Positions 1-40,027 of a DNA stretch of 46,440 nucleotides are shown piece after piece (positions within the stretch are counted from its first letter, which is position 1; the number at the start of each line of letters is the position of its first letter). The stretch comes from Elsinoe ampelina (taxonomy: Eukaryota). The position numbers and the translations under genes were made by a program. The notes beneath the pieces were generated by a model, which was given only the letters and a program-made list of their open reading frames with translations, ran no database searches and was not told where the DNA came from. The stretch lies in the NCBI GenBank assembly GCA_010093995.1, contig ML992504.1:1909250-1955689 (forward strand), in the 5' to 3' direction.

Positions 1-632
1 TTTAAGTTTATAATCTTTATTAGAAACTTAAGATAAAGATCTTTAACTAGCTTATCTATATACTTCTACCTAGTAGTAATAATCCTAAAGTTATTAATAT
101 ATATAAGAACTATATAATACTTATTAATAAAGAGATAGGTATTACTATAGAATTTAATAAAACTAAGTAATAAAAGTGCCTTAACTATAGTGTTATACTA
201 GAGAGTAGTAGCTTACTTAAGCCTATATAAGTCCTTTATAAGAATAATAAGCTTATTCTATTTACTAGGAATTAGTACGCCTTCTAGATAGGAGATATAG
301 TTCTTAATATTAATATCTAGTCTAAGGAATATAGTAACTATATTAGCTATTATAATAACCTAGTTATAATAAAGAGTATATATAAGAATTACTCTTCTAG
401 TTTTAGCTCTTAGTATTAGTATAAAGGTTCTAACAAAGTTAATATCTACTCTTTAAGTAAAGCCTCTTATAGTCTAATAAGCCTTATATCTTTTAACTTT
501 GCTATTAGTAAGCCTCTTAGTCTTAAAGACCTATTTGTCTATTATTAGCCTAACACCTCTTAGTGTCTATAATTTCTTAATAATTAAGAAAGTTTTAGAG
601 TTAGTTAGAGCCTTCTACTCTACCTCTATTAT

Positions 633-830
633 TATAACAAAGATAGAATATTAGAGCTAGAAAGATAAGTATATAGGAGTAGAATAGGTATTATACTAGT
701 ATACTCTTAATTATTATAAGACTAATCTCTACTCTATCTATTCTATAGGTAAGGAGTGTTTTATTCTTCTATAGAGAATAGTATCTCTAGAGTAAGCTAG
801 CGTAGTATACTTACTACGTTAGTTCTTATA
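633..830 (-). repeat. 3' LTR of the chromovirus
   Basis: Ungapped match to 7709-7906 with about 19 differences by manual count, all transitions. Ends TA..TA, consistent with RIPed TG..CA. Confidence 0.93.
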
Positions 831-1488
831 ATTATTCTTCCTCTTTAAGGAGTACGCTCTTACGCTTATAAGCCTTAATAAAACCTAAAAAACCTAGTAT
901 AGGAGAAAACTAGAAAAGAGTATCTTACTAGCGCCTCTTAGGCGTAGTATACTCTTCGTATATATAGCGTACCTATAGTAGCCTATACTATTCTTCGTAT
1001 ACTAGATATAGTAATAATAGTATAATCTTTATATATAGAATATAGCGCTCTTATATTATTATCTTTATATATAAGAATTTACTTATTATTATATACTACT
1101 ACCTATTATTCTCCGGATTAGTCTTAGCTTAGAGCTAGATATATATCTTTCTCTTCTCTTTCTCTTCTTCTTTTCTTCTTTATAATACTTCCTTTACGTA
1201 AGTATTCTACTTAATACTAGCTCTATACTTATATAGGTCTAATACTATACTAGTAATCTATTTTAGGTGCTATATAGTATAGACTAGGTCTTACTAGCCT
1301 AAGGGCTAGTAGGGGAAGCTTAGTATATATACTAAGCCTATACTACTATAGATCTAGCTATTAGGCTTATCTATTTAGTTGTTTATTTACTAACTTAGTA
1401 TAGTATCTACGTAGTAATTTTTTTTTTCTCTTTATTATTTTAGCTCTATACTAGCTTACCTTCTATACGCTTATATACTTTAATAACT

Positions 1489-2359
1489 ATAGCCTCTAAA
1501 GTTTCTAAGGAGTAAGTATTATATATAGTACTTACGCTACGCTAGTACTAACCTTTTATAGACCTTATAAGAGCAATTTTACTAACTAGAACTAGTACTC
1601 TATACTATACTCGCGCTATACTATTACTATTAATAAGTACCTCTAGCTTAAAAATAGTATACTCTCTATCGAGAATTCTCTCTACTAAATTACTAAGGCT
1701 AAAGCTACCTACTATAATTATTATAGTTATAGTAATAAACACTACTACTAGGTATACTCTATATCTATGCTATATCTACTTTATACTAACCTTAGTAGTC
1801 TACTAAGCTTAACTCTAAGAATTAAGCTACTACTAAGAAGCTCTAGGATAAATACTTTACTATATATATACTACTCTATAATAACACTATTACTCCTAAG
1901 AAGAATATTATTCTCCTAAAGTGCCAAATTACTACCTATACTAACTATATACGCGAGAAGGCTAGCGCTAAGTATATATAGAGTAAGTCTAATACTAAGA
2001 GTAAGAGTAAGGTAGTTAATAAGAGTAATAGTAATAGTATAACTTCTTTACGCTATAATAGCGCTATTACTATGCTCTTCGCCTCTAAAGTTAATACTAA
2101 GTAGCTAGTAAAGGCGCTACGCCTAGGTATAATTAGTAATACTAGCTTTATACTTAAGGCTTTAGTCTATTATATAAGTCTAAAAGTGCGCCTCTATAAC
2201 GCCTAAGCTATACTAACTTTCTTATAGGTAGTTACTAAGAATAAGTAAGCTACTACTACGTAGGTAATTAATAATGCTATAAGAGCGCTAACTAGGTATA
2301 TTAATAGTATTAAGAAGAATAATAAGGATAAGACTAAGGTAGATAATATAGATAGTTAA
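1489..2359 (+). pseudogene. RIP-degenerated spliced gene antisense within the chromovirus 3' region (exons 1489-1511, 1562-1751, 1796-2359; ~258 aa)
   Basis: Start context taataactATAgcc de-RIPs to caacaaccATGgcc. Intron 1512-1561 reads GTAAGT..TACTAAC..TAG and intron 1752-1795 reads GTATAC..TACTAAC..TAG. Exon phases join into one frame whose few stops are all TAA/TAG (RIP products of CAA/CAG/TGG). K/N/S tracts de-RIP to E/D/G-rich tracts. Confidence 0.72.
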
Positions 2360-2589
2360 AGTAGAGAGAGCTAGGGCACTATATCTATACTATACTCTCT
2401 TTACTTTAGTATAATTCTATAGTTTTTACTACGCTAGTATTCTCCCTATATAAGCTAATAATACTCTAAGCTAACCTAGTACTACGCCTAGGTACTCTTT
2501 ACTTTAAAATTTATACCTTTAACTTATTAATTCTAAGTATATCTAGAGTGTTTAGCTAGCACTATACTTATACTAAGCTACCTTATATT

Positions 2590-5500
2590 TATATAGTAAT
2601 TTCTTAGCGTTTATAAGGTTTTTTACTAGCTCCTATATACTTTCTTTTATAGAGTAACTCTACTACTTTACTAGGTAGTATAGCGCTTTTAAAGTACTAG
2701 TATAGCCCTTACTAAAGATATATTTAATAATATATTCTTCTTACTCTTCTACCTCTAGGGATAGTAGATATATACCTTTACTACGCCTATATAGCTCTAG
2801 TAGCGTAACATTAAAGACGTTATAGATTAGCTTTATTTTGTCTAGTAAGCGTAGCTTATACGCCTACGTACTAATTCGTTATATAATTATAAATAGGCTA
2901 ATATACTTAGCTAATAGCTTACGGCTAGGTCTAGCGCTACGAAGGTTCTTAGTACTAAGTATAACTTTATTACTATTATAGAAGACTTTTGCTTATTAAC
3001 CTCTATTATAGGCTAGCGCTTAGTCTTTCTATACTTTATATAGGTGTTAGGCAAGCTCTATATACGTTTTAGTAATAGATTATACTTAGTTATTAACCGA
3101 TAAGTTATACGCTAGTATATAGCTAGGTAGCGCTAGTGCCTTAATATTATTAAGTAGGTATATCTTCTATATAAATAAGAACTACGCTAGCGTAGCGTAT
3201 AGTAACGCTTAATATATGTTATTATATACGAATTGCACCTACTTAACCTAGTATAGCTAGTCTATCTAGTAATAGTTAATAAAGTAATATAGGTACTACT
3301 CTAGCGTCTAGTTTTGTCTTTTAGTTTAGCTATCTATCTATAGATAGAAACTAGTACTAAGCTTATATTATGCCTTCTAGCGCTAGTATAGCGCACTCTA
3401 GAATTTACTTATAAAGATAAACTCTCTATCTAAGACTAGTGTCTTTAGCGTTCTAAATAACGTTATAATATCTATTTTAAATAAATTAGTAAAGTCTCTA
3501 GTATTAAGCTTAGTTAATATTAGTATATAGATACTAAACTTAGACAAGTAATAGACATATATAACAATTGTATCTATAATAACACTAGGCTAGAGCTTTA
3601 CTAGGGGTAAGCTAGTAATAAAATTAAGTAACTAGTATTATAAGGCCTTAAGTGTTATAGGAGGCTATAAGGTTTATACTATATTACCTTATGTCTTTAG
3701 TAGCTATTATAGCGCTTAATATATACTTTCGTAGCGACGGATATACCTAGCTACTAGTACTTTCTCCTTATATTAAAGTAGGTCTTTATATAGCTAAAGT
3801 AACTCCCTAAGGAGTTATTATAATTATGCTATATAAGCTCTACTCTTAGAGTAGTTTCTTCTAGAATATATACTCTATCTCCGTTCCGGAGTAAGCTATT
3901 ACTAGATAGGCTTTACTTAGGGGTAGTACTATTACTAGTTAAGGTTCTCTCTTTTAGAAGTTTCTATTTCTTACTATAAGTAAAGGTGTCTCTTTACTAT
4001 ACTATATAGATAAGGTCCTAGAGCGATATAGGAGTAGAAGAGATATATATAGTCTTATCTACTAGTACTTACGTAGTATAAAGATACGTAATTTACTAAC
4101 TCTAGTTTAAAATTATAGTAGGCTTTTTACTAGAGGTATTCTAGAGTTATACGAGTATTATACTATCTTTATACTCTTAGCTCTCTATTATTTCCTAGGC
4201 GAGTAGTAGCACGTCCTAGAATACTAAAGTAGGTATATATCGTTCTAATTTAATATTACTAGTTAGGCTTAGAGAGAGATTTATATAAGTACTCTCTAGG
4301 TACTACTCTTTTTACTCTAGAGGCTCTAACTCTTCTTAGTATAGCTATAGTACTCCTAAGGTAATAGGTAGACTTATAGGTACTATTCTAGAGGTATATT
4401 AGAATTATATAAGCGCGTTATATTAGAGAGTAGTTTAAGACATATAAGCTATACTAGCTTTATTACTATCTTCCTAGGCTCTACTAGCCTTAGGTTCCTT
4501 ATCTATAATAGATATAGGTATAACTCCTTTACTTCGTATTTATAATACTTACTCTAAGAGAGAAACTAATATATAGTACTTTTCCTATATATCTTCTTTA
4601 TGCTTATAGTAGTTAGGCCTACGTAATAGGCTATTAGCTAAGTTAGTCTTCCTACTATAGTACTAAATAACAATATTAAACTATACTAGTACCTCGGCGT
4701 AGTAGGCCTAGCGCTATAAAAGCTTCTTAGTAGTTAGAAAATACCTAAGGTTATTATAGTTAGAGAGAACTTTAATTAGAGTAGTAGTACTAAGTAGATA
4801 CTAGCGCTAGTACTACGCTACTTCTATAATAGTAAGAAGCTCTTTATCGTAGGTAGTATAGTTTAGTTCTATACCTTATAGCTTCTAGGACTAGAACGCT
4901 ATAGAGTACTAGTATTATATAGAGGTATTACCTTTATATTACTAGAAGATTACTCCGGAAAGTATAAAATCTAAAGTATTAGTCTCGAGCTAGAGAGGCT
5001 TACTTAATAAAAAGTAGTATAGTATAGATACTTATGTAAAGGTAGCTTTAAGCCTATTAAAGGCCTATACTATATCGTCGCTCTATAGAAATAGGCCTAC
5101 TTACTTCTCTTAGACTAACTCTTATATAAGTATAGTTAGTAGTAGTACTACGTAGAAGAAGCTCTTAATAAATTAATAGTAGAAATTAGTAAATCTAAGA
5201 AAGGTTTATAACTCCTTAAGACTAGTAGAGGTAGACTAGTTAGTAATAGCTTATACCTAGAGCTACTCTATTATAACACTATTACTACTAATAATATAGC
5301 TTAGAAATACTACCTATATTACCTCGAAGATATACTTCTTTAGTTTTATATAGAGGCTATTCTTACGTAGGTAGTCTAGTACGCTCCTAATAGCCTAGTA
5401 ATACTTTTACTTATCGCTAGCGTAGATTAGAATATCGTCTAGATATATAATATAGTAGTAGTCTACTAAGCTACTTAAGTACTAATATATATAAGCTTAG

Positions 5501-6430
5501 AATATAGCTAGAGCGTTAGTAAGGCTAAAAGGTATAATAGTATATTTAAAGTAGCTATAGTAATAGTAGAACGCTATCTTCTATTTATTACTACGCTAGA
5601 TATATACCTTATAGTAGGCATCTATAAGGTCTAGCTTACTAAATAAGTATATACTCTTAATATAATTAAGTATCTTAGTAATTAGAGGTAAGAAGTAATA
5701 GTTCTTAATAGTAATATTATTTAGCCTATAATAGTTAATATATAGGCATAGCGAACTATTCTTCTTAGAAATAAATAGGATAGAAGACTCTATAGGGCTA
5801 GTACTATACTAGAGTTAACTCGTTGCTAAGCTATTATCTATATACTCTCGAAGTACCTAAAGCTCCTTTTTACTAAGGGGGTAGATAAGTCCCTAGAGTA
5901 GCTATTTTCCCTCTTTAATATCGATAGAGTAAGTAAAATTGTTACTTAGTAGTGCTATTACTACGCTCTTATTAAAAACATCTACGTAGTTATTAAGCTA
6001 GTATAGTAGAGTTAAAGCGCTAGGTTTATCCTAGTATATATATACTAAGTAGAGCTAGGCATTAGGCTAATTTAGCTCCTAGGAGAAGGAGAGTATATCT
6101 AGAATTAACACCTATATAGCGCTAGTATAATACCTCTATATACTAGCGCTCTACTAAATCTTAGAGTTATAGAATAATAGCTATAGTAGGCCTAATATAA
6201 GATTATAACTAGTTATATTAACGCTTTTAAACCGCTAGCGCGACACTTATATTATTTCTTTACTATTCTTAATAGTAAAAGCTAACTTAGTATATCTATA
6301 GGTAGTTAATTTATATTTGTCTAAGCTATATACTTAGTATACTACTAGGGGGTCGACGGCGATATAATAGCGTATAGCAAAATACTAGCTAATAAAGTTA
6401 CTATTAGCGCTACTATCTATTAGAGCTACC
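2590..6430 (-). pseudogene. Gypsy pol relic: protease, reverse transcriptase, integrase, chromodomain (boundaries approximate)
   Basis: ALIDSSANSNFIS (=LIDSGA) ~6390-6426. YLDDILIY 5422-5445. LNFITSLP ~3605-3628. KLSTSFYL*IDS*TKRQN*TLE*YL (=STxFHPQTDGQTERQNQTLEQYL) ~3290-3364. YYLVK**SY..KESI*EL..NL (=YLVKWxGY..ESTWEP..NL) ~2615-2680. Confidence 0.92.
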
Positions 6431-7708
6431 TCTTTAATAGGCTCTTTAGGTAGGTTAACTATAATATTAGTACAAATTTAGTATATATCTTATATTATAC
6501 TAGAGCTACTTAGAATTAGTAAATATAAGAACACTATTCGTTTTAAAGAGTTCTTCTAGAGATAGTTTAGCGCCTAATAGTCTAAGCTCTTATAGATGTT
6601 ATAAGAGTAAGTAGCGCTAGGTTAGAGAGCTATAGGAGTAGCGTTAGCGCTACTCTACTAGTCTTTTTAGCTCTTATAGTCTTTGTTATAGTAAGGCCTT
6701 TTAGTAAAAGTATTAGTCTTCTCTTTAGCGTTATACTTATACTACTCTTATATAGAGTCGAAGTAGCCTAGTAGGTTCTACTCTAAACGAGATAGATATA
6801 CTAGGAGTTCTACCTTAATTAGAAGTAGATTTCTCTAATAAAGTACTTCTAAGCGTAGCTCCGGCGTAGTATAGGTAATAAGCTATATATAGTAGGTATT
6901 ATCTAGGAGTAGTACTATCTTAATATAAAACTTATAACTATCGAGAAACATATAGAAATTAGTAATTAACTATTCTCTATACTAGTATAACGTAAAGAAC
7001 TTTACTACGTAGCTATTACTATAGTTTTTAAGACTCTAGGCTTAGTCCTAAAGCTAGAACTATATTAGGCTCTATAAGGGTATAACGCTAGCGCTCTTAG
7101 TATATAAGTCCTAATTATAGCTAAGCTAATCTTTTAAGTAGCTAGTAGCTATATAGCACTAAGTAACTTCTTTAAAGTAGATATTTAGTACTATCTTAAA
7201 GATATTATTATACGTATATATAAATTCCTTAACTCTTACTATAATAGTAAACTCTAAGGCCTTAGAGTAGTGTAAGTTTAGTATATACTCTCTTATAATT
7301 TATAGGTTTATTAGGTAGATATCGTCGAGTTATACGTTATTAAAACAACTATATAGCACCGGCGCTATAACTAGAGAGTAACTACTAAGTATATTCTTAA
7401 GCTAAGTAATATAAGTAAGAAGTACTTTATATATAGTATTATTTTCTATGTCGGCTATACTTCCTATAGGAGCTATATTAGCGCGGTATAGCCTTAGCGC
7501 TAGCTCTTCCTTAGCCTAGCAATCTTTAATAGAAGTTGTCTCTAAAGTTATAGCTAATTTAGTAAATGTCTTACTAATAGCTAAGCTATTAGAGAGTTAT
7601 CTATACTAGTACTACTCTAGTAGTAGTTAGTCGTTTTACTAGCGCTAAGTATAGAGTACTATCTTATCTATATAGCTCTATCTAATAGAATATAAAAGAG
7701 ATTAGAAT

Positions 7709-7906
7709 TATAATAAAGGTAGAATATTAGAGCTAAGAAGATAAGTATATAAGAGTAGAATAGGTATTATACTAGTATACTCTCGATTATTATAAGACTA
7801 ATCTCTACTCTATCTATTCTATAGGCGAGAAGTGTTTTATTCTCCTACGGAGAATAGTATCTTTAGAGTAAGCTAGTATAGTATACTTACTATATTAGTC
7901 CTTATA
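7709..7906 (-). repeat. 5' LTR of the chromovirus
   Basis: Direct repeat of 633-830, followed by the ATTAT TSD. Confidence 0.93.
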
Positions 7907-9198
7907 ATTATAGCTTACTAGTAATAACCTTTAGGAGAGAATAGTATATCTCTTACTATTTATAGGTCTAGCTTAAAATTAATAGCTATAGATCTAATAA
8001 TCTTACTATTATTAAGTTTCTTATAATTAATCTAGTAATATATTCTAAGGGACCTTCTAATAGTTTCTTATAGTAAGAGAAATCTCTTCCTTTTACTAGT
8101 TAAAGGTTATATATTAAATAGTGTAATAAGAAAGTTAATATTCTTATTTTATATATATATTAGTAGTTAATTAATATTAACTATAGGATTAAAGGTTAAA
8201 TATAGTTCACTAATAACTTTAGGTAGTAGTATTATAAGGTCTTTACTTTTATAATTAGTAATAATAAGTTACTTCTCTTATTTATTAATAGATTAAGGAT
8301 CTAGCTAAGAATATTAGTATTACTCTCTCTATTCTTTAATAGAGGTAGATAGTTATTATTTATATTTAGAGATTAAAGAGTAGTTAGATATTAGTTGTTT
8401 AGCTTAAGGTTATTTAGCCTAAGTAGTTTATAGATTCTTATAACTAAAGGGTAGTTAATTATAGCTATAGTCTTAATTATAATTACTACTAAATATCTAC
8501 TCCCCCTAAAGCTATAAAGCCTTAGGTTATTATACCTATAGGATATATAGCTATTTAATAACTTATGTTACCTAGTCTTTATAGACTATATTCTTATTAA
8601 ATATTATATAGAGTAATATAATAATCTTTCTCTTCTAGGCTTACTAAGTATAATACTAATAGAGTATCTAGATAAGGTAATTAGTTATTAAGTTATTCTA
8701 TATACTAATATACTAACTAAGTAGTACTCTAGCTTAGAATTTATATAATTTAGAAATATATTAGTTATAGATATAGGCTCTATAGCTAAAGCGTCTAATA
8801 TAAGCTAATAAGACTAGTCTATTATTATTAAGAAGATTCTTTCTTAGCTCTTATATAGGGATCTTCTTAGTTTTAGTATAGGTAATTCTATTACTAATAT
8901 AAATTATAAACTCTATAACTATATATTAGAGTTTAAGGGGTGCTCTATAATTAATAAAGATATACCTTATTCTAAGAATAACTACTTTATTAGTAGCCTT
9001 AGATTTACTATTTTAGTATAAAGTATTAGATATAAAGATATCCTATCTCTACTCTTTAAGATAAATAGCTATTACTAGTTTATAGTTCTTAAATTTACTT
9101 TCTCTATTAGAGATAAAGATAAATAAAAGCTTATTATAGACTATTTTATTCCTTATATAGATAAGTTTAATTACTACTAGTATATTACTCTTAAGGAA

Positions 9199-9778
9199 NN
9201 NNNNNNNNNNNNNNNNNNNNNNNNNNNNNNNNNNNNNNNNNNNNNNNNNNNNNNNNNNNNNNNNNNNNNNNNNNNNNNNNNNNNNNNNNNNNNNNNNNNN
9301 NNNNNNNNNNNNNNNNNNNNNNNNNNNNNNNNNNNNNNNNNNNNNNNNNNNNNNNNNNNNNNNNNNNNNNNNNNNNNNNNNNNNNNNNNNNNNNNNNNNN
9401 NNNNNNNNNNNNNNNNNNNNNNNNNNNNNNNNNNNNNNNNNNNNNNNNNNNNNNNNNNNNNNNNNNNNNNNNNNNNNNNNNNNNNNNNNNNNNNNNNNNN
9501 NNNNNNNNNNNNNNNNNNNNNNNNNNNNNNNNNNNNNNNNNNNNNNNNNNNNNNNNNNNNNNNNNNNNNNNNNNNNNNNNNNNNNNNNNNNNNNNNNNNN
9601 NNNNNNNNNNNNNNNNNNNNNNNNNNNNNNNNNNNNNNNNNNNNNNNNNNNNNNNNNNNNNNNNNNNNNNNNNNNNNNNNNNNNNNNNNNNNNNNNNNNN
9701 NNNNNNNNNNNNNNNNNNNNNNNNNNNNNNNNNNNNNNNNNNNNNNNNNNNNNNNNNNNNNNNNNNNNNNNNNNNNNN
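9199..9778. other. Assembly gap (N run) within Copia-A
   Basis: Run of N characters. Confidence 1.
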
Positions 9779-11162
9779 TAACTATACTAACTTCTATATT
9801 AAGTAGCTTCTTTATACTAATAGCTTATTTAAATTTAAAAATACTTTTATATACCTTAATTGTTAAGAACTATAACCTATCTTTAATATAGTGCCTTAAT
9901 ATACTAGAGTTATAGATTACTCTATTCTTACTATAGGTTAAGAATAATAATATAGATACTACTACTACTCTATAGACTAGTATAATAATATTAATATTAG
10001 TATTAGAGTATTTATCTAATTTACTTACCTTAGTAGGTTCTTTAGATTCTTTAATAGCTACTTAACCTTTAACTTTCTTAGTCTTTAACTTATTACCTTT
10101 ACCTTTAGCCTTTATACCTTTATTATTTAACCTATCTTTATTATTCCTTTTACTTTAACTCTTTAGTACTTTCTTAGGGTACTACTTAAAGTAATCTATA
10201 TTAGAGTAGATATAATAAGTATACTAAGTATATTAATTCTTAATATAACTAGCTACTCTATAAATAGAGTTTAGATTAGTTCTTCTATTATATAGAGGCT
10301 TCTATATTCTAAGAGAGTCTATTATCTCTTTAAGACTCTTCTTATAGTTAAGGCTAGATCTTTAGCTCCTTAACTATTTAGTAGTCTTTATTCCTATAAT
10401 AAACATAGTCTTAATATAGTATAGAGAGAGCCTAAACTTATCTAGTTTAGCACTAATAGTACTTACTCTTTACTCTATAGTAATAGTATATTAATAATAG
10501 TACTTTATGAAATCTTTATAGTACCTTTAGGTATTATAACTTATTATAATTACCTTATTAAGGTTATAGATAGCTATATATAGCTTATATAAAACAATAG
10601 GTTTAAATATAGCTTTAATAGTGTCTAGAAGTTTCTTTAAAGTCTTCTAAGTTATACTATAGTAAGGTCTAATAGATTTATAAATCCTTATTATAATAAT
10701 ACTATAAGTAATTCTATTATTCTTATACTAGGTCTTATTCCTAACCTTATAGACTACCTTAGTGCCTTTACTAGTATCTAGGGCTAGTTCTTTAGGCTTT
10801 ATAACTGCTAGTATCTAGTCGATGCTATAAATTATATATCTAAGTATATCCTTTTTAAGAAGAGCTACCTTAAGAGTTAATCTCTAAGTATTATAGTTAC
10901 TCTCTCTCTTAAGAATCTAAGTCTTAAGCATTTTTACTAATCTAGACATAATAATAGTAATTAGCTAAAGGCTTATTAATTTAATTAATATAATTAACTT
11001 ATTTAAGCTGTTTAAGCTGTTTAATTAAAGAGTTAATATAGGCTACTATAAGTGTTTATCTTAATATAGCTAGTCTAGAATTTAGTATAGGCAGCTTAGT
11101 AATTCTTTTAATAATAATACACTTAATTTACTATAGCTTTAAGTACTTTTATAGAAGCGCTA

Positions 11163-11477
11163 GGCTTATAACCTATTATAACTAGCAAATCGAATCGAGA
11201 GATATATATTTTATTTAGAGAGTTATAATAACTAATTTATCTACTATACGTGTACTAATTTATTAGTACTAGTTCTTTAGTACTAGAGAAGCTATACTAG
11301 CCTTCTATTATAATAGATCTATTACTATTCTTCGTTCTTACTCTAATTTTATCTACTAGAGAACGAAAAGTATTAAGTAAGTAAGCGCGATAGTAGTAGT
11401 TTTATATTTCTTAATTAAGTAAGTAGAATTAAGAGACACACGAGATAGAATAACTCTCTATATCGAGGGGTTTAACA
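11163..11477 (-). repeat. Putative primer-binding site (11163-11173) and 5' LTR (~11174-11477) of Copia-A
   Basis: Minus strand reads GGTTATAAGCC (=GGTTATGAGCC, the Ty5/copia half-tRNAiMet-type PBS) directly after a TAATA end. The outer end is taken at minus-strand TGTTAAA. No second LTR copy in the window confirms it. Confidence 0.65.
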
Positions 11478-11560
11478 TCTTTCTAGTATAACGCTATAGT
11501 ATAGTGCCTTATAGAATATACTAATTATAAACTCTCTATTATAGTACTAAGCCTAAGCTA

Positions 11561-13213
11561 TCTCTCTACTTATAAAAGTTTATTAATTTTTTAACGCGTT
11601 ACTCTAATACTAAACTTACTTCTTATAAATAAATCTTTAAACTACTCTAAATCTACTAATTTTATTTTAACTACTTCTATACTATTATAGCTTATAGAGC
11701 TAAGCTTACTAAACATGTCCGTTATTAAATTATTTATAAAAAGTTTAGTAGTAAGCGTAAGTAAGTTAATATTATAACTAACTTTAGGCTTAAGCCTTCT
11801 ACTATCTATAAGGTTATTAAGCGTGTAAAATTATATTTAATAACTAACAATTTAAATAATCTAATAGAGGCTACTAATATAATGCCTTATAAAGGCTATC
11901 TATACCTTATAAAGCCGAGTTCTATTAAGAGTAATATAGTATATACAATAGTTAAGAAGCTAAAGTACTATAACTAAGTTATTACTACTAACGAGGTTAA
12001 TAATTAGAAGGTTCTTTAAGAACTTAATATTAATATCCCTTAAATAATATATAAGTAAGTTAAGGCTATTCTTATAAGTAAAGAGTATAACGCTAAAGAC
12101 TATAATTACTAGCTAATTGTTATTAAGAAGAATATTATTAAACTCTCTAGATATAACACTTAAGAGCGCCTCTTCTACTACTTTAATAGTAGTAAACTAT
12201 ACTTATATATTAAGGAGAAGACTATTCTTATTATCTATAACAAAAAGAAGTTTAGATTTAGTTAATCTTTAAAGCGTAAATTAAGCGTTAGATCTAGCTA
12301 AAAGACATACATTAATAAGAGCTATTAACACTTTATAAGGAAGTAATAGGCTATAGTAACTACTTAAGACTTAGTAACAATAAAGCTATATATTATCTAG
12401 AACCTCTCTAATAAAAAGATCTTTAAGCTAGAGAAGCGTTTAGCCTTAATTAACGTAGATAGGCTATAAGAGATAGAGGAGCAGTAGTAGCGAGCTAATA
12501 ATAAGCCTTCTTCTATAGAGTTTAAAAAACTTTATAACTATAACTAGTTAGTAGACTAATATAATTACTATTAAGAGAAGAGTAATAAGAGAAGCCGACG
12601 GCGCTATTAGACTATAAAACAAGCCTTTAAATATAAGCCTATTAAGGCCTTCTTAAAGAAATTAGACTTTCTCTAGTATAGCTTTATTATATATAAAGAC
12701 TACCTTTTTCCTTATATCTAACACCTCTAGAAGTATTATTTAAAGAAGTATATTATCGTTATTAAGGACAATAGTACTATATACTATAAGGCTAGAGCTA
12801 TACTATTGTTAAAGATTAAGAAGCTTAGTATCTTATTTACTAAATATCTAGCCTTCTTACTAGATTTAAACCCTTATAAGACTCTTTATTATAAAGAGAA
12901 GAAGCTACTTCTTAGCTTTATTATTAACGTTAGAGATGCTAAAAAGGTAACTGTTACTAAGGCTAACTAGCGTCTAAAGTAAGTCTAGTAGTTAAAAGCC
13001 TTTAATAAAGAGGTTACTAAGTACTATAGCTATAAGGCATTTAATAACCTTAGAATTAAATGTAAGAGTAATAAGGGTCATAACCACTTCTTAGATTAAT
13101 GACAGCTTCATATATCAAGTGTTGAATGAATAAACCACCTCTAAAGGCTTCAAATCGCTTGGTGGAGCGGATAAATTCGCCAAGAAATTGACAAACTTTT
13201 GCGAGTGGAGAGG
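11561..13213 (+). mobile_element. Complete Tc1/mariner-superfamily DNA transposon (1653 bp)
   Basis: 36-bp TIRs at 11561-11596 and 13178-13213 differ at 10 positions, all C>T or G>A in the left copy. TA flanks both ends (11559-11560, 13214-13215). Contains a transposase relic. Confidence 0.93.
11687..13099 (+). pseudogene. RIPed DDE transposase (~470 codons)
   Basis: One frame carries an HTH-like N-terminus (KLTKHVR..II....LKPSTIYKVIKR), YNKKKF (=xDEKKF) with the D codon at 12239, KDNS (=EDN) with D at 12767, and YLAFLLDLNPYK (=HPAxSPDLNPxE) at 12845-12880. Confidence 0.88.
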
Positions 13214-13433
13214 TACATCGCTTCTGTCGCAGATCTCCAACATGACCCCTTCTTGCTGCACGCCAACTCTTGGGTCAATATGTACAGCCAGCACTCGCGT
13301 CCTTCTGCTACATCTGTCCCCTGTTATCGCGCGTGCAGCTTCACCTGCCTCGGCTTCAACGTACTGTGCCGCACTCTTATAATTGAGCCGGTAGCCTCTC
13401 CACAGCGGTGCCATTGCTTGCCAAACAGCAGCT

Positions 13434-15183
13434 ATGGCGTTCCAACTAGAGAAAGAAAAACCGGATGTAGCTTACCTCGAGTACGCCTCACGACAGGTAA
13501 CGCTCGACGACTCGAGAGACAAGTCACCACTCGATGACCAAGGGCGCGATCATGTTGATTCCAAGGAGTCACTCTGGCAAGCTTCAAAGCGGTATCCCAA
13601 AGTGGTGCTATATGGGTTCGGCTTGACCTTTGGAATATTGCTGTACGGCTACGACACTGCTGTTGTCGGTAATGTATCATCCATGCTGCCCTTCATGTAC
13701 GCGGTTGACTGTGAGCTGTGGATGTCTTACCAACGACTGGCAGGCGCGACTTCGGCTCAGTACTCAATGGTCGTCCACTCATTCCAGCCACCTGGCTTGC
13801 ATTGTGGAAAGCTGTCGGTCCGGTTGGTGCAATGCTTGGTGCAACTATTGCGGGACTTGTACAAGACAAGGTCGGCAGACGACTCTCTCTTGTACTCGGT
13901 ACCATCATTGTGTCTGCCGGAGTTGCCATCTGCTTCACCTCTAACCTACCTAAAGACATTGTAGGACGTCGCACCGCCTTTCTTGTCGGGAAAATCGTGC
14001 TTGGCGTTGGCGTTGGTCAGATCATCACGACGACTCAGACATTCATGTCGGAGATTGTCCCGACTCGTCTGAGAGGACCCATCATGTCTCTCATCCCAGC
14101 ATTCACTCTGCTCGGTCAGCTCATCGGAGCAGTCGTGATTGCCACCCAGCGATACTCACGCAGCTCAACTGCCTATTTGATCCCGCTTGCGTCACAACGG
14201 GCTTTTGCTGCAGGTCCTTTGGTCGTTTGTGCCATTATGCCAGAAAGTCCAATCTGGTTGATTCGAAAAGGCCAGACAGAGAAGGCCATGAACGCCATTC
14301 GTCGCCTGCGGAAGAAGGACGAGAATGTCATGTTGATCTACGAAGAGATGTGTCAGACCGTCATAGGCGGCGATCATCGGTCTGACCAGAACAACTCTGG
14401 CGAAGACGCACGACCGCCAAAGTTCCAGGACTGCTTTTCACCTACCGAGAAGCGAAGGACACTGGTGTCTCTCTGGGCATACACAACACCTCAGCTCTGG
14501 GGCGTGACGCTGCTGGCGAACTCAAGCTATTTTGTCCAAATGGTTGGCATGGACGCTGCAAACAGTCTGCTCTTCCTGGTTGTCGGTATTGTTCTGGGCT
14601 TATTGGCCAATCTGATCAGCATCTGGTTGATCTCCAAAGCCGGACGTCGTCCTCTCATGCTAAGTACGTTCTCGGTCCTGACTATGCTCTGGCTCGGGAT
14701 GGGCATCTCGGGGTTTTTCCAAGGCACCGTCGTCATCTGGTAGGTCTAGATTGGATGCAACATGCCACTTTCTATGGACTGACTACAACAAGGTACACTG
14801 CCATCACCATGATGATTGTCATAACGGTTGCCGGTCTTGGTGTGTGGCCCGCTTCGTACGCTGTAGGAGCAGAGGTCTCTTCGATTCGCTTGCGAGCAAA
14901 GGCCCAAGGTCTAGGCTGGCTGACGTCTAGTCTATGGACTGGAGTCTTCGCCATGGGTCTACCATATGCCTACAATCCAGACGCCGGTGATCTCAAAGGC
15001 AAAACAGGTTTCATCTTCACGGCCTTGTCAATACTGGGCATGGTGACAACATATTTCATCGTGCCGGAAATGAAAGACCGGAAGCCGACCGAGATCGACC
15101 GCATGTTCGAATTGGGTCTGTCAGCACGCAAGTTCAAAAGCTGGACTGGTGTGCAACCAGACGGGACAAGACTAGCAGTCTAG
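13434..15183 (+). CDS. MFS sugar porter, maltose/alpha-glucoside permease-like (exons 13434-13696, 13744-14739, 14793-15183; 549 aa)
   Basis: Motifs LYGYD, DKVGRR, SEIVPTRLRG, PESP, GRR, EVSSIRLRAK and PEMKDRK. Two GT-AG introns (47 and 53 bp) join three ORFs in frame. Confidence 0.92.
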
Positions 15184-16231
15184 ACTGCTGTTCATCTGTC
15201 CTTGGGAGTTGGGCTGGGCAGATAACGGATAGTCAGAGCTCAACAACGTTCAATTCTTGTCGTGCAACGGTCGTCGTGCGAATGCCGCCTTGTGCCTGGC
15301 TGCCGTGACAGCACCTCGTCCTCAGCAACGGAGATGCTCGTCGATAGAAGCTATCGTTGGAAAAGCCACCCACGTACAGTTCATGGGGACATGCAGCGGC
15401 GATGATTGAAGCGCTTCACTGCTTGTGAGTTGTGACTAATGACAAAGTAGCTAGAACGGGGACGAATGGTGAGTTGGATTATCAATTGTTCTGGACTTGT
15501 GACTCTTCATAGCAGATCCTTCCAAGCTGAAACCGGAGCGAGTGTCGCCTTTTGTAGATCAAACCTCCTCGTAACTGGCGATGGTGCTGTGGGGATGACG
15601 AAATCTCTTCCCGCGGTCGTCGACTTCACCTTCTCCATCCATCACCTTGCTGGATCAACCATCAGACAATCCCGAATTCGCTCACGTTCCATCTCGCCTT
15701 ATCGTAGTAATTGATCCTAATTCCATTCAACAGAGACATGAAAATGTTGAACATGAGAGACAGCTTCGAGAAGATACAGCGACAACTGCCGTTCAAGGCT
15801 GTAGGGCTGTCTTCATCACCCCGAATGAGGCCAATGGATACCAAGGTATACAACGCTTTTCTTCCCGTGAGACACATTGACGACAATCTAAACGAGTACC
15901 CACCATCTGCGCCCTTCTCAAGTGTCTCAATCGATCTTGCAGATGGGCCACAAAAGCCTTCTTGATGGCCGCCCGTTGTGACCGTTGGTTACTATCAGCG
16001 GCGGACAGACGACCGACACTTCTGAAAACCCCCATGGCTGGATCTTTCTGCGAGCCGTTGTCCATAGCTCACCGGCTATATTCGACGGGCGGCAGTTGAA
16101 GCATACAACGCTCACAAGGTAAGAGTCTCACCAGGTCATTCTCGAGGCCTTCATAATGCTTTTCTTCCCGGCTGGTTTGGGCTCCTCACCTTGGTCACCT
16201 TTACCCATTTCAACTTTTGGTCAAGGCAATC

Positions 16232-18850
16232 ATGCGTGTACTTGCAGGTCTCCTGCCCGTCCTCGCCACTTTGGCGCAGGTCAAGGCTCAAGAAAATCAA
16301 GCCGAGGATGGTGAATTGGATATGGACAAAGTTCCAGCCGATCACAGGGATTTGAAGGACATCCCAATCACCACCACTGAGCCGTGGGACGTTGTGGTCA
16401 AAGCCTCGGCTGCTTCCCTCTGGTCATCCTTCAGCTCGGTCAAATCTCAAGAACGAGTGAACAATGGTGTACGAGGCCCTGAGGCGACCCCAACAGCCAC
16501 TTTGATCAAAACTACAAAGTCGAAGAAGGCCAAGACGACTACGACCACTACCACCACAACCAAAAAGAAGGGCAAGAAGACAAAGACGACCACGACGGCC
16601 ACCAAGAAGAAGAAGGCCGCTGCAACCACCAAGGCCAAGAACGTCAAGCAGCAAAAGCGTCAACTCAGCACTCTGCCAGTCCCAGCCATCAATGCGGTGG
16701 GAAACAACACAGGTTGTACTATCAAGCCTCAAGGTATTCTCAACCCGTACCAGTCGTCACCCAACACCCCGACAGGTTTCTACAACGACGCCAACTTGAC
16801 TCGTCTGGCGGCTGCCGAATGGCTGCCACCTGCCGGCTATTGGACAAGTTTTCAGAATCAGCTTGCTCAGGTACAGAAGACTGGAGCTGTTCCTGGAGAT
16901 GCCGGACTTTACATCATGTACTTTCAGACACCTTCGTACACGCCTTCGCTCTGTGCCAAGGCCTGTGATGTACGGGACGAGTGCCTCGGCTTCAACATAT
17001 ACTTCAGTCGTTCGCCCCAGTGGGAACCACAATATCGTAACACCACAAACCCGAATGGTGTCTGCAGTAACCCTGTTGCTCAAGCTGAAGTCGGCTGCGG
17101 TCTCTACTTCCAGTGGATCTATTCCAGTTACGCAACCAACACCGGTCAATGGAGAGCTGACTTTGCTCTCCTGACCGTCGGTAACAATGGTTACAACAAG
17201 AATCCAGTCCCGGCCAGGCAGACCAATTACACCAAGGCAGTTGCTCTCCTTGGTGCCGTGAATGGTTTCAGCGCGCCAGAGTACATCACATACAATTATT
17301 GGACCACCGCATTCGATGATTCGAGATGCGCCGCTGCGTGCACAGCGTACAGCAACAGCCAGCGCGCTGCAGCCATCTCTAACAGACTCAGCACCTACGA
17401 AGCCTGCAACTACTACAACACGTTCAACGTCACCTACCAGGGTACCTACCAGGGTCAATACTGCGTGTTATACAATGACACCTCTGTCCTCTCCAACGGT
17501 TACATGACCTACTCGTCACAGACTTACAACGGCCAGACCTACATCTATAACTTGACTAACAGCTTCGGCACTGAGTTATATGGTCACGATCCTGGCACTG
17601 TCTCTCCTGCGTGGTCTCCTGCCCCAACTGGCGCTGCTGCTTCTTGTGAGGCACTTGGATCTACTGGTACAACCGGGTTCACTCTCCTGGACATTCAGCG
17701 CAACAATTACACAGTTGCTTGCAACTATGATTTGCAGAATGCATTCGACGTTGGCAACTCCACGGCTCCCGACTTCTACTCATGCTTCGATCTGTGCGAC
17801 AATTTCAGCGGCTGCAGTGGGTTTGCTTGGCTGCCATACACGCCATCCAACACCTCAGCGGGTGTCTGTTACTTCAAGGACCTTTCCACAAGTATCCGTA
17901 ATCCAACATCATCCACCAATGGCGCCGACCTTGCCTGGCTGACAAGCAAGTACGCCGGTTTCAAGGCAGGTAACAAGGTCGCCACTGTTACTTACACAAC
18001 CTACACTACGGCTTGGACAGGTGCCAGCACGGTCACGGCCACCTCATTCAATGATCTCACTGGTTACATCATTGTCCAAACGCCTGGCTTGAGGACAAGT
18101 TCGACTACGTCTGGTGCCACCGTCACCACCACGGTGTACACAGACTCGGGTACACTCACCAGCATCAGTACCACCACTTCTGCGGCTGTTTCCCGTACCG
18201 TCACGGTCAAAATCTTCTATCCTACCCCCACCTGTGGTTCGACAATTGGTGCCATCTCCTACGCGATGTACACCAACTCGTTCATGGGTGGACAGAATAC
18301 CAACTCGTACCCTGCCTTCAACCCTACCATTTACAAGACCATTGCTCCGGCTGCCACTGGTGTGGCCAACTACCTTGCGGAAGACAATGCCGATACTGCA
18401 TCCACCACCATCTACGGAAGGGCTGGTATCGACGGTCGCAGCTTGGTCATGCAGCACACCTTCTACTTGTATGCGGGTCGCGGTACTGGTCGTTACTACT
18501 TCCAGTTTCCCTACTCGGACGATATTTCCCTCCTTTGGGTCGGTGACAAGGCCGTCTCCGGCTGGAACCGTACCAACAACGATTTGCTCCAGTTCTGGAA
18601 CGGTCAACCCCAGACTCCTACCACTGCTTCTTTCTTCCTCTCAGCCAACACCTGGACACCTGTCCGTGTTCAGTGGGGTAACGGTGGTGGCCAAGGTGAT
18701 CTGCAATTCTCTATCATCGACCCTAACGGAAATTACCTGGCCTACTCTACGCCGTTGGCCAACTCGGGCTACTTGTCGCCTCAGATTCTCAAGTCTGTCT
18801 GTTCGTCGGCGAATGCAGGTGTATTCCCGGCATGGGGAAGAGAAACGTAG
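16232..18850 (+). CDS. Secreted adhesin-like protein: signal peptide, Lys/Thr-rich region, Cys-rich PAN/apple-like repeats, Thr-rich linker, C-terminal GLEYA/PA14 domain (872 aa, single ORF)
   Basis: ATG at 16232 opens MRVLAGLLPVLATLAQVKA. Cys modules CAKACD..CLGFNIY, CAAAC..CNYYN and CFDLCD..GCSGFAW..CYFK. C-terminal YSDDISLLWVGDKAVSGW..PVRVQWGNGGGQG is typical of GLEYA. Confidence 0.85.
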   Translation: MRVLAGLLPVLATLAQVKAQENQAEDGELDMDKVPADHRDLKDIPITTTEPWDVVVKASAASLWSSFSSVKSQERVNNGVRGPEATPTATLIKTTKSKKAKTTTTTTTTTKKKGKKTKTTTTATKKKKAAATTKAKNVKQQKRQLSTLPVPAINAVGNNTGCTIKPQGILNPYQSSPNTPTGFYNDANLTRLAAAEWLPPAGYWTSFQNQLAQVQKTGAVPGDAGLYIMYFQTPSYTPSLCAKACDVRDECLGFNIYFSRSPQWEPQYRNTTNPNGVCSNPVAQAEVGCGLYFQWIYSSYATNTGQWRADFALLTVGNNGYNKNPVPARQTNYTKAVALLGAVNGFSAPEYITYNYWTTAFDDSRCAAACTAYSNSQRAAAISNRLSTYEACNYYNTFNVTYQGTYQGQYCVLYNDTSVLSNGYMTYSSQTYNGQTYIYNLTNSFGTELYGHDPGTVSPAWSPAPTGAAASCEALGSTGTTGFTLLDIQRNNYTVACNYDLQNAFDVGNSTAPDFYSCFDLCDNFSGCSGFAWLPYTPSNTSAGVCYFKDLSTSIRNPTSSTNGADLAWLTSKYAGFKAGNKVATVTYTTYTTAWTGASTVTATSFNDLTGYIIVQTPGLRTSSTTSGATVTTTVYTDSGTLTSISTTTSAAVSRTVTVKIFYPTPTCGSTIGAISYAMYTNSFMGGQNTNSYPAFNPTIYKTIAPAATGVANYLAEDNADTASTTIYGRAGIDGRSLVMQHTFYLYAGRGTGRYYFQFPYSDDISLLWVGDKAVSGWNRTNNDLLQFWNGQPQTPTTASFFLSANTWTPVRVQWGNGGGQGDLQFSIIDPNGNYLAYSTPLANSGYLSPQILKSVCSSANAGVFPAWGRET

Positions 18851-19206
18851 TCCGGCGGCAACACTCTTTTCTTCTCATCCTGTACACAAGTTTCCTTTGT
18901 CATCGGTGGCGGTGGGGATCAAGCATGGAGCGAGGGTATGGACGGATGTATTATATCGCGGTCCTGAGATTGCATTCCGGAAGCTAATCTTCTTCTACAT
19001 TCTACATGTGGCTTCGATGAAGTCGCTCAAAAGGTCGACTTTTCCTAGTCGTTCTATTTTTGTGTGAGGATATATTACTAGAATAGGGTACCACAGCTGT
19101 ATTCACATTGTGTTTTACTTCGTGTTCCTCTTGCATCTTTGGGAAAACTTGACCAAATGAGATCCTCTACTTTCCACACTATACTATTCTTCACCCCCCC
19201 CCAACC

Positions 19207-19800
19207 ATGTCGTCCATGGCTTCTCCAGAGGGCAAACTCGCCCCTATAGTCAACAACATCATCAGCAACAAGGTCATCGACGACTCAGACGACCACTGCG
19301 AGTACGTAGACGAAAAGGCTCGCAGCCCAGACGACATTGCCGACCTCAGCGGTATCGAGGCCACAGCCGCATCAAAGGCAGCATGGCTCATCTCCCTCAC
19401 CGTCTCCATTGGTGGTTTCCTATTCGGGTACGACACTGGATACATCTCGTCCGTGCTGGTCACCATCGGCGAGTCGTTGGGTCGTCCGTTGACCTCGAGT
19501 GAGGAAGAGCTGGTCACCACCCATCACCTCTGGTGGTGCCTTGATGGGCGCCGTCATCGCCGGCCTGACTGCCGACAAAGCCCTCTTCCGCATCTGCCGC
19601 CAATGCACACCACAATAGCGCGCCGAAAATACATATCAAAGCCATCGAAATGTCCATCGAAGAAGCCCTCCACTCCACGCAGAAGGATCACAGGCATGAG
19701 AAGAAGGTGGTGGTGCAGAGTTTTGGGCACTCGGGCGGGAGTGGTAGATTACTGGGATACTTGGAGCAACTCGACAATCACTGCACGTCACCATCTCAAT
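19207..19800 (+). pseudogene. Truncated, frameshifted myo-inositol-transporter-like MFS pseudogene
   Basis: IEATAASKAAWLISLTVSIGGFLFGYDTGYISSVLV, then a +1 frameshift at ~19519-19522, after which ITSGGALMGAVIAGLTADK resumes in another frame. Clear similarity stops at ~19579 with no splice donor; the right boundary is approximate. Confidence 0.85.
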
Positions 19801-19938
19801 GTCACCACAAGGGAAGCCATTCGTGAAATCAAAGACATTGAACATTAACCATCTACCCAAATCCCTCCAAGTACGAGGTATCTAATCTATAATCATCAAT
19901 CGCAAGTCATCAATCAATCAGTCAAAGGACACCCCCGC

Positions 19939-39909: not shown

Positions 39910-40027
39910 TTATCTGCTAAATAGCGCCGGTTGAGGTCTTGCGAGGAGTTCAGCGATGGCTGGAGCTGCGCGTCAGACGCGGCAAAGCTGGTGCGAAATA
40001 GACGCGCTTCACGTGATCAGCTCTGCA

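Follow-up and report, generated by a model that had tools for sequence, protein, structure and literature searches.

The window analysed here is a stretch of 46,440 nucleotides from Elsinoe ampelina (assembly GCA_010093995.1, contig ML992504.1, positions 1,909,250 to 1,955,689 of the forward strand). It carries at 631–7911, on the minus strand, one copy of a high-copy Ty3/Gypsy chromovirus that has been killed by repeat-induced point mutation (RIP). Between the end of its pol gene and its 3' long terminal repeat (LTR) lies a spacer of about 1.7 kb, and positions 1380–2365 of this spacer were formerly coding. The best explanation for this tract, and to our mind a probable one, is an accessory gene of the brtn/aORF-3R kind, i.e., an intron-bearing gene running antisense to pol, now inactivated by RIP. 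In the window copy the antisense gene is dead: it has no ATG to start from and 14 in-frame stops, and CpA and TpG are nearly gone from it. The original protein cannot be read from this copy. A sequence-only reading of the same DNA had proposed both the antisense gene and a zinc-cluster-like motif within it, and these two parts of the proposal have fared differently.

The probable spacer gene and its strand

The features of the spacer, in window positions, are as follows:

1380–2365, strand left open by the signal: once-coding tract with strong three-base TA periodicity in the phase map; the phase changes by 2 near 1750–1797 and the signal stops at about 2365
1489–1511, plus strand: exon 1 of the gene model; starts with ATA, presumably a RIPed ATG
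1512–1561, plus strand: putative intron 1, 50 nt; GTAAGT ... TACTAAC (1546) ... TAG
1562–1751, plus strand: exon 2, Tyr-rich (13 Tyr in 63 codons); holds Y1608-x2-Y1617-x6-Y1638-x24-Y1713-x2-Y1722-x6-Y1743
1752–1795, plus strand: putative intron 2, 44 nt; GTATAC ... TACTAAC (1784) ... TAG; exactly at the codon-phase shift of 2
1796–2359, plus strand: exon 3, 188 codons with 10 stops; ends together with the periodicity, about 180 nt from the pol end and tail-to-tail with it
2174–2227, plus strand: candidate third intron, 54 nt; RIPed donor ATAAGT ... TACTAAC (2211) ... TTTCTTATAG; read from the sequence and the phase list
1140–1180, plus strand: CT-rich tract upstream of the antisense model, seen in the sequence

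That this tract was once coding follows from the manner in which RIP has marked it. In this element, RIP has left TA dinucleotides preferentially across codon boundaries, and in exon 3 as many as 80 of 128 TA dinucleotides stand in a single codon phase (counts by phase 21/27/80), with 18/3/23 in exon 2. The corresponding counts in pol are 86/77/115 for the part coding for reverse transcriptase (RT) and RNase H (115 of 278 in the top phase) and 39/47/63 for the integrase end. Thus, the periodicity of 1380–2365 is stronger than that of pol, and the tract can be taken as formerly coding. In a sliding phase map, a single phase prevails between about 1410 and 1740, a second one takes over at about 1797 and persists to 2365, and the signal is then lost. 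The periodicity is strand-symmetric, and it therefore proves past coding without indicating which strand was read.

On the plus strand, the three exons at 1489–1511, 1562–1751 and 1796–2359 join into 777 nt, i.e., 258 codons and a stop, just as the sequence-only reading had it, and the two introns that it claimed are present with their donors, TACTAAC branch motifs and TAG acceptors. Some of its finer points hold up less well. What was described as a Kozak-like start is ATA and not ATG, the sole ATG of the model being internal. The statement that only TAA and TAG occur as stops is correct for all 15 of them (5 TAA and 10 TAG) but trivial, because TG has been nearly lost after RIP (4 TG remain in exon 3) and TGA is absent for that reason. 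Two refinements of the model are offered here as proposals: an alternative first intron at 1512–1595 (84 nt) would preserve the periodic frame and drop two TAG stops, and the candidate intron at 2174–2227, which preserves phase and coincides with a dip in the periodicity, would remove two more.

The strand is indicated by the splice motifs. The plus strand of 846–2540 has six copies of TACTAAC (at 1388, 1546, 1580, 1784, 1939 and 2211) and the minus strand none, against an expectation of 1.2–1.7 on the plus strand in Markov simulations of orders 1–3 built on plus-strand composition (P 0.002–0.012). Five of the six copies are followed by YAG within 12 nt, where 0.6–0.95 would be expected. The complete donor-branch-acceptor pattern is found 3 times in the 1.7-kb spacer, whereas the remaining RIPed DNA of the window, 31.8 kb with both strands counted, has it 5 times. 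Moreover, the 44-nt intron, with a length of 2 modulo 3, sits exactly at the codon-phase shift of 2, and the periodicity ends at the stop codon of the model. On the strength of these strand-specific motifs and of the intron at the phase shift, the plus strand, antisense to pol, is favoured for the spacer gene, and an antisense, intron-bearing gene stands as the best reading of the spacer; the openness of its frame does not support the choice of strand.

Several observations weigh against such a gene. The model is without a true ATG start and has 14 internal in-frame stops; its exon 1 lies out of the local periodic frame; and two of the six TACTAAC copies fall within its exons. The minus frame in register with it is as open, with 12 stops vs. 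15 on the plus strand over about 251 codons (11 vs. 10 in exon 3 and 1 vs. 5 in exon 2), so that openness decides for neither strand, and a codon-usage strand classifier proved to be without power on pol controls. Among 79 metagenome loci retrieved with an alignment of ten RT-RNase H relatives (cited below by their locus numbers), L037 and L065 have open reading frames (ORFs) on the sense strand after pol. Finally, a homologue of the cargo was found for no reading of it, in searches that are weak on RIPed sequence, and the placement of the window among its relatives rests on a provisional quick tree in which its branch is very long and compositionally deviant.

Some of these same points speak for an alternative that assigns the coding signal to the minus (pol-sense) strand, as a third sense ORF downstream of pol and in its codon phase, and regards the plus-strand introns as chance motifs. 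Besides the open minus frame, this alternative can point to the TA phase that the minus frame over 1770–2430 shares with the integrase/chromodomain frame, and to the top RIP-aware alignment scores, which fall on minus frames, though these look like low-complexity matches. It can also point to the sense ORFs themselves, which belong to another clade, start near the pol end, encode 404 and 194 amino acids (L037:13299-14510 and L065:13296-13877, plus strand) and have weak matches to a WCCH motif (E 0.004–0.01). However, the closest intact Pols stop just past the chromodomain in 10 of 10 cases, and the stretch 2370–2550, separating pol from the periodic tract, has a different phase. The minus strand has zero copies not only of TACTAAC but also of CTAAC, whereas the plus strand is enriched 4–5 fold over its own composition. 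A sense ORF would also require an unexplained frameshift at about 1750, in the very place where the plus strand offers a 44-nt intron. In light of this, a sense gene appears improbable.

If the gene was indeed antisense, the plus strand of the 1.7-kb spacer would have held it as an accessory gene about 1 kb long, tail-to-tail with pol and broken by two or three introns of 44–54 nt. It may have been transcribed from a promoter of its own in the roughly 550 nt adjoining the 3' LTR. The CT-rich tract at 1140–1180, going by what is generally known of fungal promoters, might be a promoter-type pyrimidine box. The introns, because they are antisense to the genomic RNA of the element, would never be spliced out of it and would be copied faithfully at each round of retrotransposition. 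Such a layout would correspond to the architecture termed aORF-3R in plant Tat-type elements and to that of brtn in Boty.

The element and its family

The anatomy against which the spacer is placed comprises the following features:

631–835, minus strand: 3' LTR; direct repeat with 7707–7911, 91% identity over 205 nt
836–847, minus strand: polypurine-tract-like run, AAAGAGGAAGA on the minus strand, read from the sequence; adjoins the 3' LTR, its role being a presumed one
about 2580–2740, minus strand: probable C-terminal chromodomain of pol, picked out by eye on translation; the 2555–3202 reading aligns with relatives
2788–2968, minus strand: integrase C-terminal SH3 domain (SH3_Tf2-1), Pfam E 1.8e-10
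3852–3687, minus strand: integrase zinc finger (Integrase_H2C2), Pfam E 0.17, below the cut-off
4680–5736, minus strand: RT and RNase H; RVT_1 E 7.2e-10 (5736–5322), RT_RNaseH_2 E 8.6e-13, RT_RNaseH E 3.6e-12 (RNase H 5067–4680)
7707–7911, minus strand: 5' LTR, direct-repeat partner of 631–835

The LTR pair is 100% identical in purine/pyrimidine space, and its mismatches are all transitions, as expected from RIP. Pfam domains, sought with stops translated as X, are found for the element on the minus strand only, in the order RT, RNase H and integrase between the two LTRs, and RVT_1, RT_RNaseH and SH3_Tf2-1 exceed the Pfam cut-offs. The Pfam Chromo model has no match on the RIPed pol reading. 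The RIPed 2555–3202 reading aligns to intact relatives up to their chromodomain-bearing pol ends, and the closest intact Pols have Chromo in 10 of 10 cases, with the protein ending 3–37 residues past the chromodomain in every one of them. The chromodomain ends at about 2540–2580, and the pol end can be set at about 2540 on the minus strand and the spacer between it and the 3' LTR at 836–2540. The picture drawn by the sequence-only reading, of a minus-strand fungal chromovirus with about 1.7 kb between chromodomain and 3' LTR, is borne out by the LTRs, the Pfam domains and the pol end alike.

The spacer is as much a part of this element as is pol. In a sequencing run of the same organism (X1), 4048 contig pieces fall on 600–8000 and cover all 30 bins, at a depth of 12,000–20,800 over 847–2575 vs. 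12,400–21,400 over pol, depth from contigs being a rough measure only. In a run of another organism (X3), 571 pieces again cover all 30 bins. The pieces of both runs differ from the window mostly by transitions. This even coverage of spacer and pol in two organisms makes the spacer integral to a high-copy family and, by this rough measure, present in most of its copies, and an origin as an independent insertion, which the sequence-only reading had named as one outcome that would tell against it, is thereby rejected. Two runs guessed to be RNA yielded one partial piece on the element in one case and none in the other.

Searches with the cargo itself returned no homologue. The plus-strand exon-3 reading gave 104 candidates in a protein homologue search, none at E<=0.01. 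The minus-strand reading of 1390–2800 gave 0 matches with HMMER against 1.84 billion representatives; the same search missed the chromodomain within its own query, so this blank says little. Pfam on seven cargo readings produced BBS2_N at E 0.13 as its sole match, and a comparison of the cargo, in six frames, with the 79 loci by tblastn gave 0 matches at E<=1, with positive controls matching 49/79 and 79/79. Only noise came from blastn against RIP-simulated spacers of nine relatives. A RIP-simulated hidden Markov model (HMM) of the zinc-cluster family described below scored the cargo frames no better than other RIPed DNA, and an empirical RIP-aware matrix learnt from the pol of the element gave three outliers (z 3.1–5.9), all of which were of low complexity on inspection. 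In terms of the HMM and tblastn check suggested with the original proposal, these searches found no homologue of the cargo itself; antisense ORFs located after pol and before the 3' LTR do occur in relatives.

The relatives are reached through the RIPed RT-RNase H region, which matches 433 database proteins at E<=1e-5. In the quick tree, the window stands on its very long branch beside the equally RIPed L067, within a 13-row set (99% SH-aLRT) that also holds L014, L015 and L016. L067, an 11.9-kb metagenome contig, is the nearest RT relative of the window and is likewise RIPed (GC 0.24–0.41); it has two pol copies, at about 3919–5032 and 9091–11760, and the contig ends before the spacer of the second copy.

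The blank searches are also what might be expected if the spacer were non-functional baggage, i.e., a piece of some gene captured long ago, or of a different element, that encodes no working protein. Spacer content indeed differs between lineages, and the post-pol stretches of L001 and L035 are genes of DNA transposons. Against this, the spacer is evenly covered over many copies in two organisms, its periodicity exceeds that of pol and has a clean start and stop, and its layout fits that of intact relatives in which selection on an antisense frame can be measured. Baggage seems improbable as an account of the spacer. The stretches in question, a PiggyBac-like piece (DDE_Tnp_1_7; L001:5515-7062) and a Tc1/mariner-type piece (HTH_Tnp_Tc3_2; L035:5171-6100) of transposases, were considered as cargo and rejected as neighbouring DNA-transposon genes.

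The element lies in one of two AT-rich blocks, at 1–13000 and 40000–46440 of the window, with a GC content of about 0.22–0.31 outside N runs, which flank a gene-rich middle block with a GC content of 0.49–0.60. In the AT-rich DNA TpA is abundant and CpA and TpG are nearly gone, which is the signature of fungal RIP. Both 7922–13000 and 40200–46440 hold more RIPed repeats. A purine/pyrimidine-collapsed self-search detected no second copy of the element in the window, 631–7911 being matched only through its LTR pair. An N run at 9199–9778, within the first AT-rich block, is either an assembly gap or masked, and a second one may lie in the bin 41001–42000, where GC is 0.12.

Antisense genes of relatives and the zinc-cluster question

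Among the loci in which both ends can be placed, the distance from pol to the 3' LTR ranges from 54 to about 2100 nt. Antisense genes after pol are encountered in several of the relatives. The first is that of L014 and L015, from the same tree set as the window, where the roughly 2.1 kb after pol contains an antisense model whose two exons are separated by a 47-nt intron (on the minus strand of each locus, at L015:6922-7763 and L014:7101-7868). Between the two loci, synonymous and nonsynonymous substitutions in the model frame number 32:31 in exon 1 and 26:4 in exon 2, both loci being free of stops, and the remaining five frames are all worse than the model frame. A third exon in the L015 model is unsupported by the substitution pattern (5 synonymous vs. 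29 nonsynonymous). Comparison of the two loci gives direct evidence that, in this group, the DNA separating pol from the 3' LTR holds an antisense gene that has an intron and is under selection. Its layout is as in the window: pol is followed by a gap of 180–325 nt, then by about 1 kb of gene and 550–740 nt up to the LTR.

The antisense protein of L014 and L015 is Cys-rich and has no family match. L015 exon 1 finds structures in the ESM Atlas with scores up to 0.82, providing an IBR-like lead only, and its comparison with the zinc-cluster family by hhalign gave a probability of 0.3%. L016 has an antisense model of its own, from a single lineage without a comparator; BLASTP detected no similarity between L015 and L016, and both models match solely their own lineage. 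The antisense proteins are thus lineage-specific, and for this reason the missing match for the cargo of the window is uninformative.

The second kind encodes a zinc-cluster-like protein. When the 79 loci were scanned on both strands and in all frames for the exact spacing of the Zn(II)2Cys6 cluster, 10 stretches were found, 9 of them opposite pol. Seven such ORFs (L022, L028, L033, L040, L048, L049 and L071) follow pol immediately and either abut its end or overlap it, out of 44 loci with at least 500 nt downstream of pol. They span 174–221 codons from stop to stop and 163–197 amino acids from the first Met, as in the example at L033:6608-7198 (minus strand), and they combine the cluster with a long predicted helix and an acidic tail, tail-to-tail with pol. 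In their alignment (A3), the six Cys are the only invariant columns.

Pfam Zn_clus gives a sub-threshold match in 5 of the 7 ORFs tested (E 0.015–3.9; best 15.8 bits vs. a cut-off of 21). A profile run against PDB sequences puts GAL4 (E 0.0047), LAC9, HAP1 and again GAL4 on top (E 0.0047–0.04), with 8 of 21 matches being Zn2Cys6 proteins. An AlphaFold2 (AF2) model of one such ORF, with a mean predicted local distance difference test score (pLDDT) of 76, has two short helices in the cluster and a helix at 65–144 with pLDDT above 90; in Foldseek, 18 of the 18 rows listed are Zn2Cys6 DNA-binding domains, none at E<=0.001. The protein database holds 434 members of the family at E<=0.001, two of which, from Cercospora kikuchii and Sporormia fimetaria, are called Zn(2)-C6 fungal-type domain proteins by UniRef. 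Many relatives of these ORFs sit on contigs of 6–7.4 kb, which are whole elements, or of 1–1.7 kb, which are possibly transcripts. A marginal profile match (E 0.0013) at L003:578-1102, minus strand, lies upstream of gag on a contig with terminal repeats; the contig may have been assembled in circularly permuted form, or the gene may have another location there.

The exact spacing of these antisense ORFs means that the idea put forward for the window is realised in relatives of its element. For the window copy a Zn(II)2Cys6 reading is not demonstrated, and homology of its cargo to the ORFs of the relatives could not be shown. The TAY codons that were proposed to be RIPed Cys codons do stand at 1608, 1617, 1683, 1713, 1722, 1743 and 1746. 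Among the 40 listed of the 1372 sites at which contig pieces differ, none falls at the second position of the six candidate Cys codons. The spacing they were given (x2, x21, x9, x2, x6/7) breaks the defining second gap of x6 and does not exceed chance, being reproduced by 6–17% of shuffled sequences (828 of 5000 for exon 2, 288 of 5000 for the whole model). If Tyr is taken for Cys, the canonical C-x2-C-x6-C-x5-12-C-x2-C-x6-8-C is absent from the plus strand of the window. The best arrangement on that strand consists of two canonical halves in the order x2, x6, x24, x2, x6. Shuffling yields canonical halves joined by a loop of at most 30 residues, a limit set post hoc, in 176 of 5000 trials with exon 2 and 36 of 5000 with the model. 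Zn_clus has no match at E<=10 for exon 2 or for six other cargo readings, RIP limiting the weight of this blank.

Notwithstanding these results, it is worth weighing whether the antisense gene, if it is one, encoded a Gal4-like Zn(II)2Cys6 DNA-binding protein, a regulator of transcription supplied by the element, with the TAY codons of exon 2 representing RIPed TGY. In its favour are the exact-spacing antisense ORFs at the same position after pol in relatives, together with their GAL4/LAC9/HAP1 best matches in the PDB, Zn2Cys6 Foldseek rows, long modelled helix and hundreds of database proteins. Exon 2 itself contributes the two canonical halves, Y1608-x2-Y1617-x6-Y1638 and Y1713-x2-Y1722-x6-Y1743, and a concentration of Tyr, with 13 in 63 codons vs. 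11 (and one Cys) in the remaining 196 codons of the model. As calibrated on the pol of the element, Cys is read as Tyr at 48% of aligned positions, His as Tyr at 50% and Arg as Tyr at 24%, with Trp read as a stop at 67% and Gln at 40%.

On the other side, the loop between the halves in the window measures 24 residues, whereas the canonical loop has 5–12 and that of the relatives 8–11; the strict pattern and the Zn_clus match are both wanting; and neither the RIP-simulated family profile nor the pol-learnt matrix gives a signal beyond low complexity. The elements with zinc-cluster ORFs all fall within a 61-row clade that excludes the window, and the lineages in the tree set of the window (L014/L015 and L016) carry different and mutually unrelated antisense proteins. 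Cys is also a minority source of Tyr in the pol of the element, where most Tyr come from Tyr, Arg or His. All in all, a Gal4-like regulator in this copy is doubtful, and a Cys/His-rich metal-binding domain is no more than a possibility for exon 2.

Comparison with known systems

The window by itself provides a modest result, namely a dead copy of an element whose architecture has been published for Boty/brtn and for plant elements. Of greater interest are its intact relatives, with a conserved antisense Zn2Cys6 ORF in one clade and a spliced antisense gene under purifying selection in a separate lineage. If these proteins bind DNA, they would represent retrotransposon-encoded transcription factors in fungi.

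The nearest parallel is Boty of Botrytis cinerea and Sclerotinia, in which an antisense gene, brtn, occupies the interval from pol to the 3' LTR (Zhao et al. 2011, Virology 417:248, as related in passages of PMC7264820, PMC8365987, PMC4227169 and PMC5987419). Hence, the supposition that such an arrangement was undescribed for fungal chromoviruses was mistaken as to architecture, going by the passages on brtn of Boty in PMC7264820, PMC8365987 and PMC4227169. As portrayed there, Boty too is a chromodomain-bearing Gypsy element of fungi whose extra gene stands past pol and before the 3' LTR on the opposite strand, and a Monilinia transcript that matches a truncated Pol together with BRTN fits a gene adjoining the pol end (passages in PMC7264820, PMC8365987, PMC4227169 and PMC5987419). 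The host class probably differs from that of the window element, and the likeness to Boty, to the extent that these passages describe it, is one of layout.

A comparable arrangement exists in plants, where antisense ORFs (aORFs) between pol and the 3' LTR are recorded in the passages of PMC7264820 for Grande1, RIRE2, Retand and PvRetro13. These are alike in position, in orientation and in their presence in most copies of a family (PMC7264820, same passages), and the tract at 1380–2365, lying between the pol end (~2540) and the LTR (835), has the placement of an aORF-3R. As presented in that source, the plant elements differ in being mostly of the non-chromovirus Tat/Retand lineage, and no sequence relation to them was found.

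For the zinc-cluster ORFs of the relatives, the appropriate comparison is with the Gal4-type domains of GAL4, LAC9, HAP1, PHO7 and LEU3, with which they have the six-Cys spacing in common. In the structural model the likeness extends further, to a cluster with two predicted helices and, after it, a long helix like that of the dimerising coiled coil in Gal4, and then an acidic tail. They are unlike Gal4-type proteins in falling below the Zn_clus cut-off, in having only 163–197 amino acids, in being borne by retrotransposons and in showing no detectable middle domain of the fungal-specific transcription-factor type; the copy in the window fails the Gal4-type spacing. Full-text searches found no paper linking zinc-cluster proteins to fungal LTR retrotransposons, a result on which the original brtn paper or supplementary material may bear.

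These comparisons can be drawn together in a wider conception, rather unlikely as a whole. It posits a large, undescribed group of fungal chromoviruses that would encode in antisense, tail-to-tail with pol, a miniature Gal4-like factor built from a Zn2Cys6 cluster together with a helix for dimerisation and an acidic tail. Such a factor might bind the LTR of its own element or host promoters and tune transcription in the manner of HBZ, and the cargo of the window would be a RIPed, divergent member in which the Tyr of exon 2 were once Cys. HBZ of human T-cell leukaemia virus type 1 (HTLV-1) is the product of a spliced antisense gene at the 3' end of a retrovirus and is a dimerising factor of the basic leucine zipper (bZIP) type. 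Although its virus is an animal deltaretrovirus, and although it has a bZIP in place of a zinc cluster and shares no homology with the fungal proteins, it resembles them in outline, as a transcription-factor-like protein encoded by an antisense gene of a retroelement and expressed from its 3' end.

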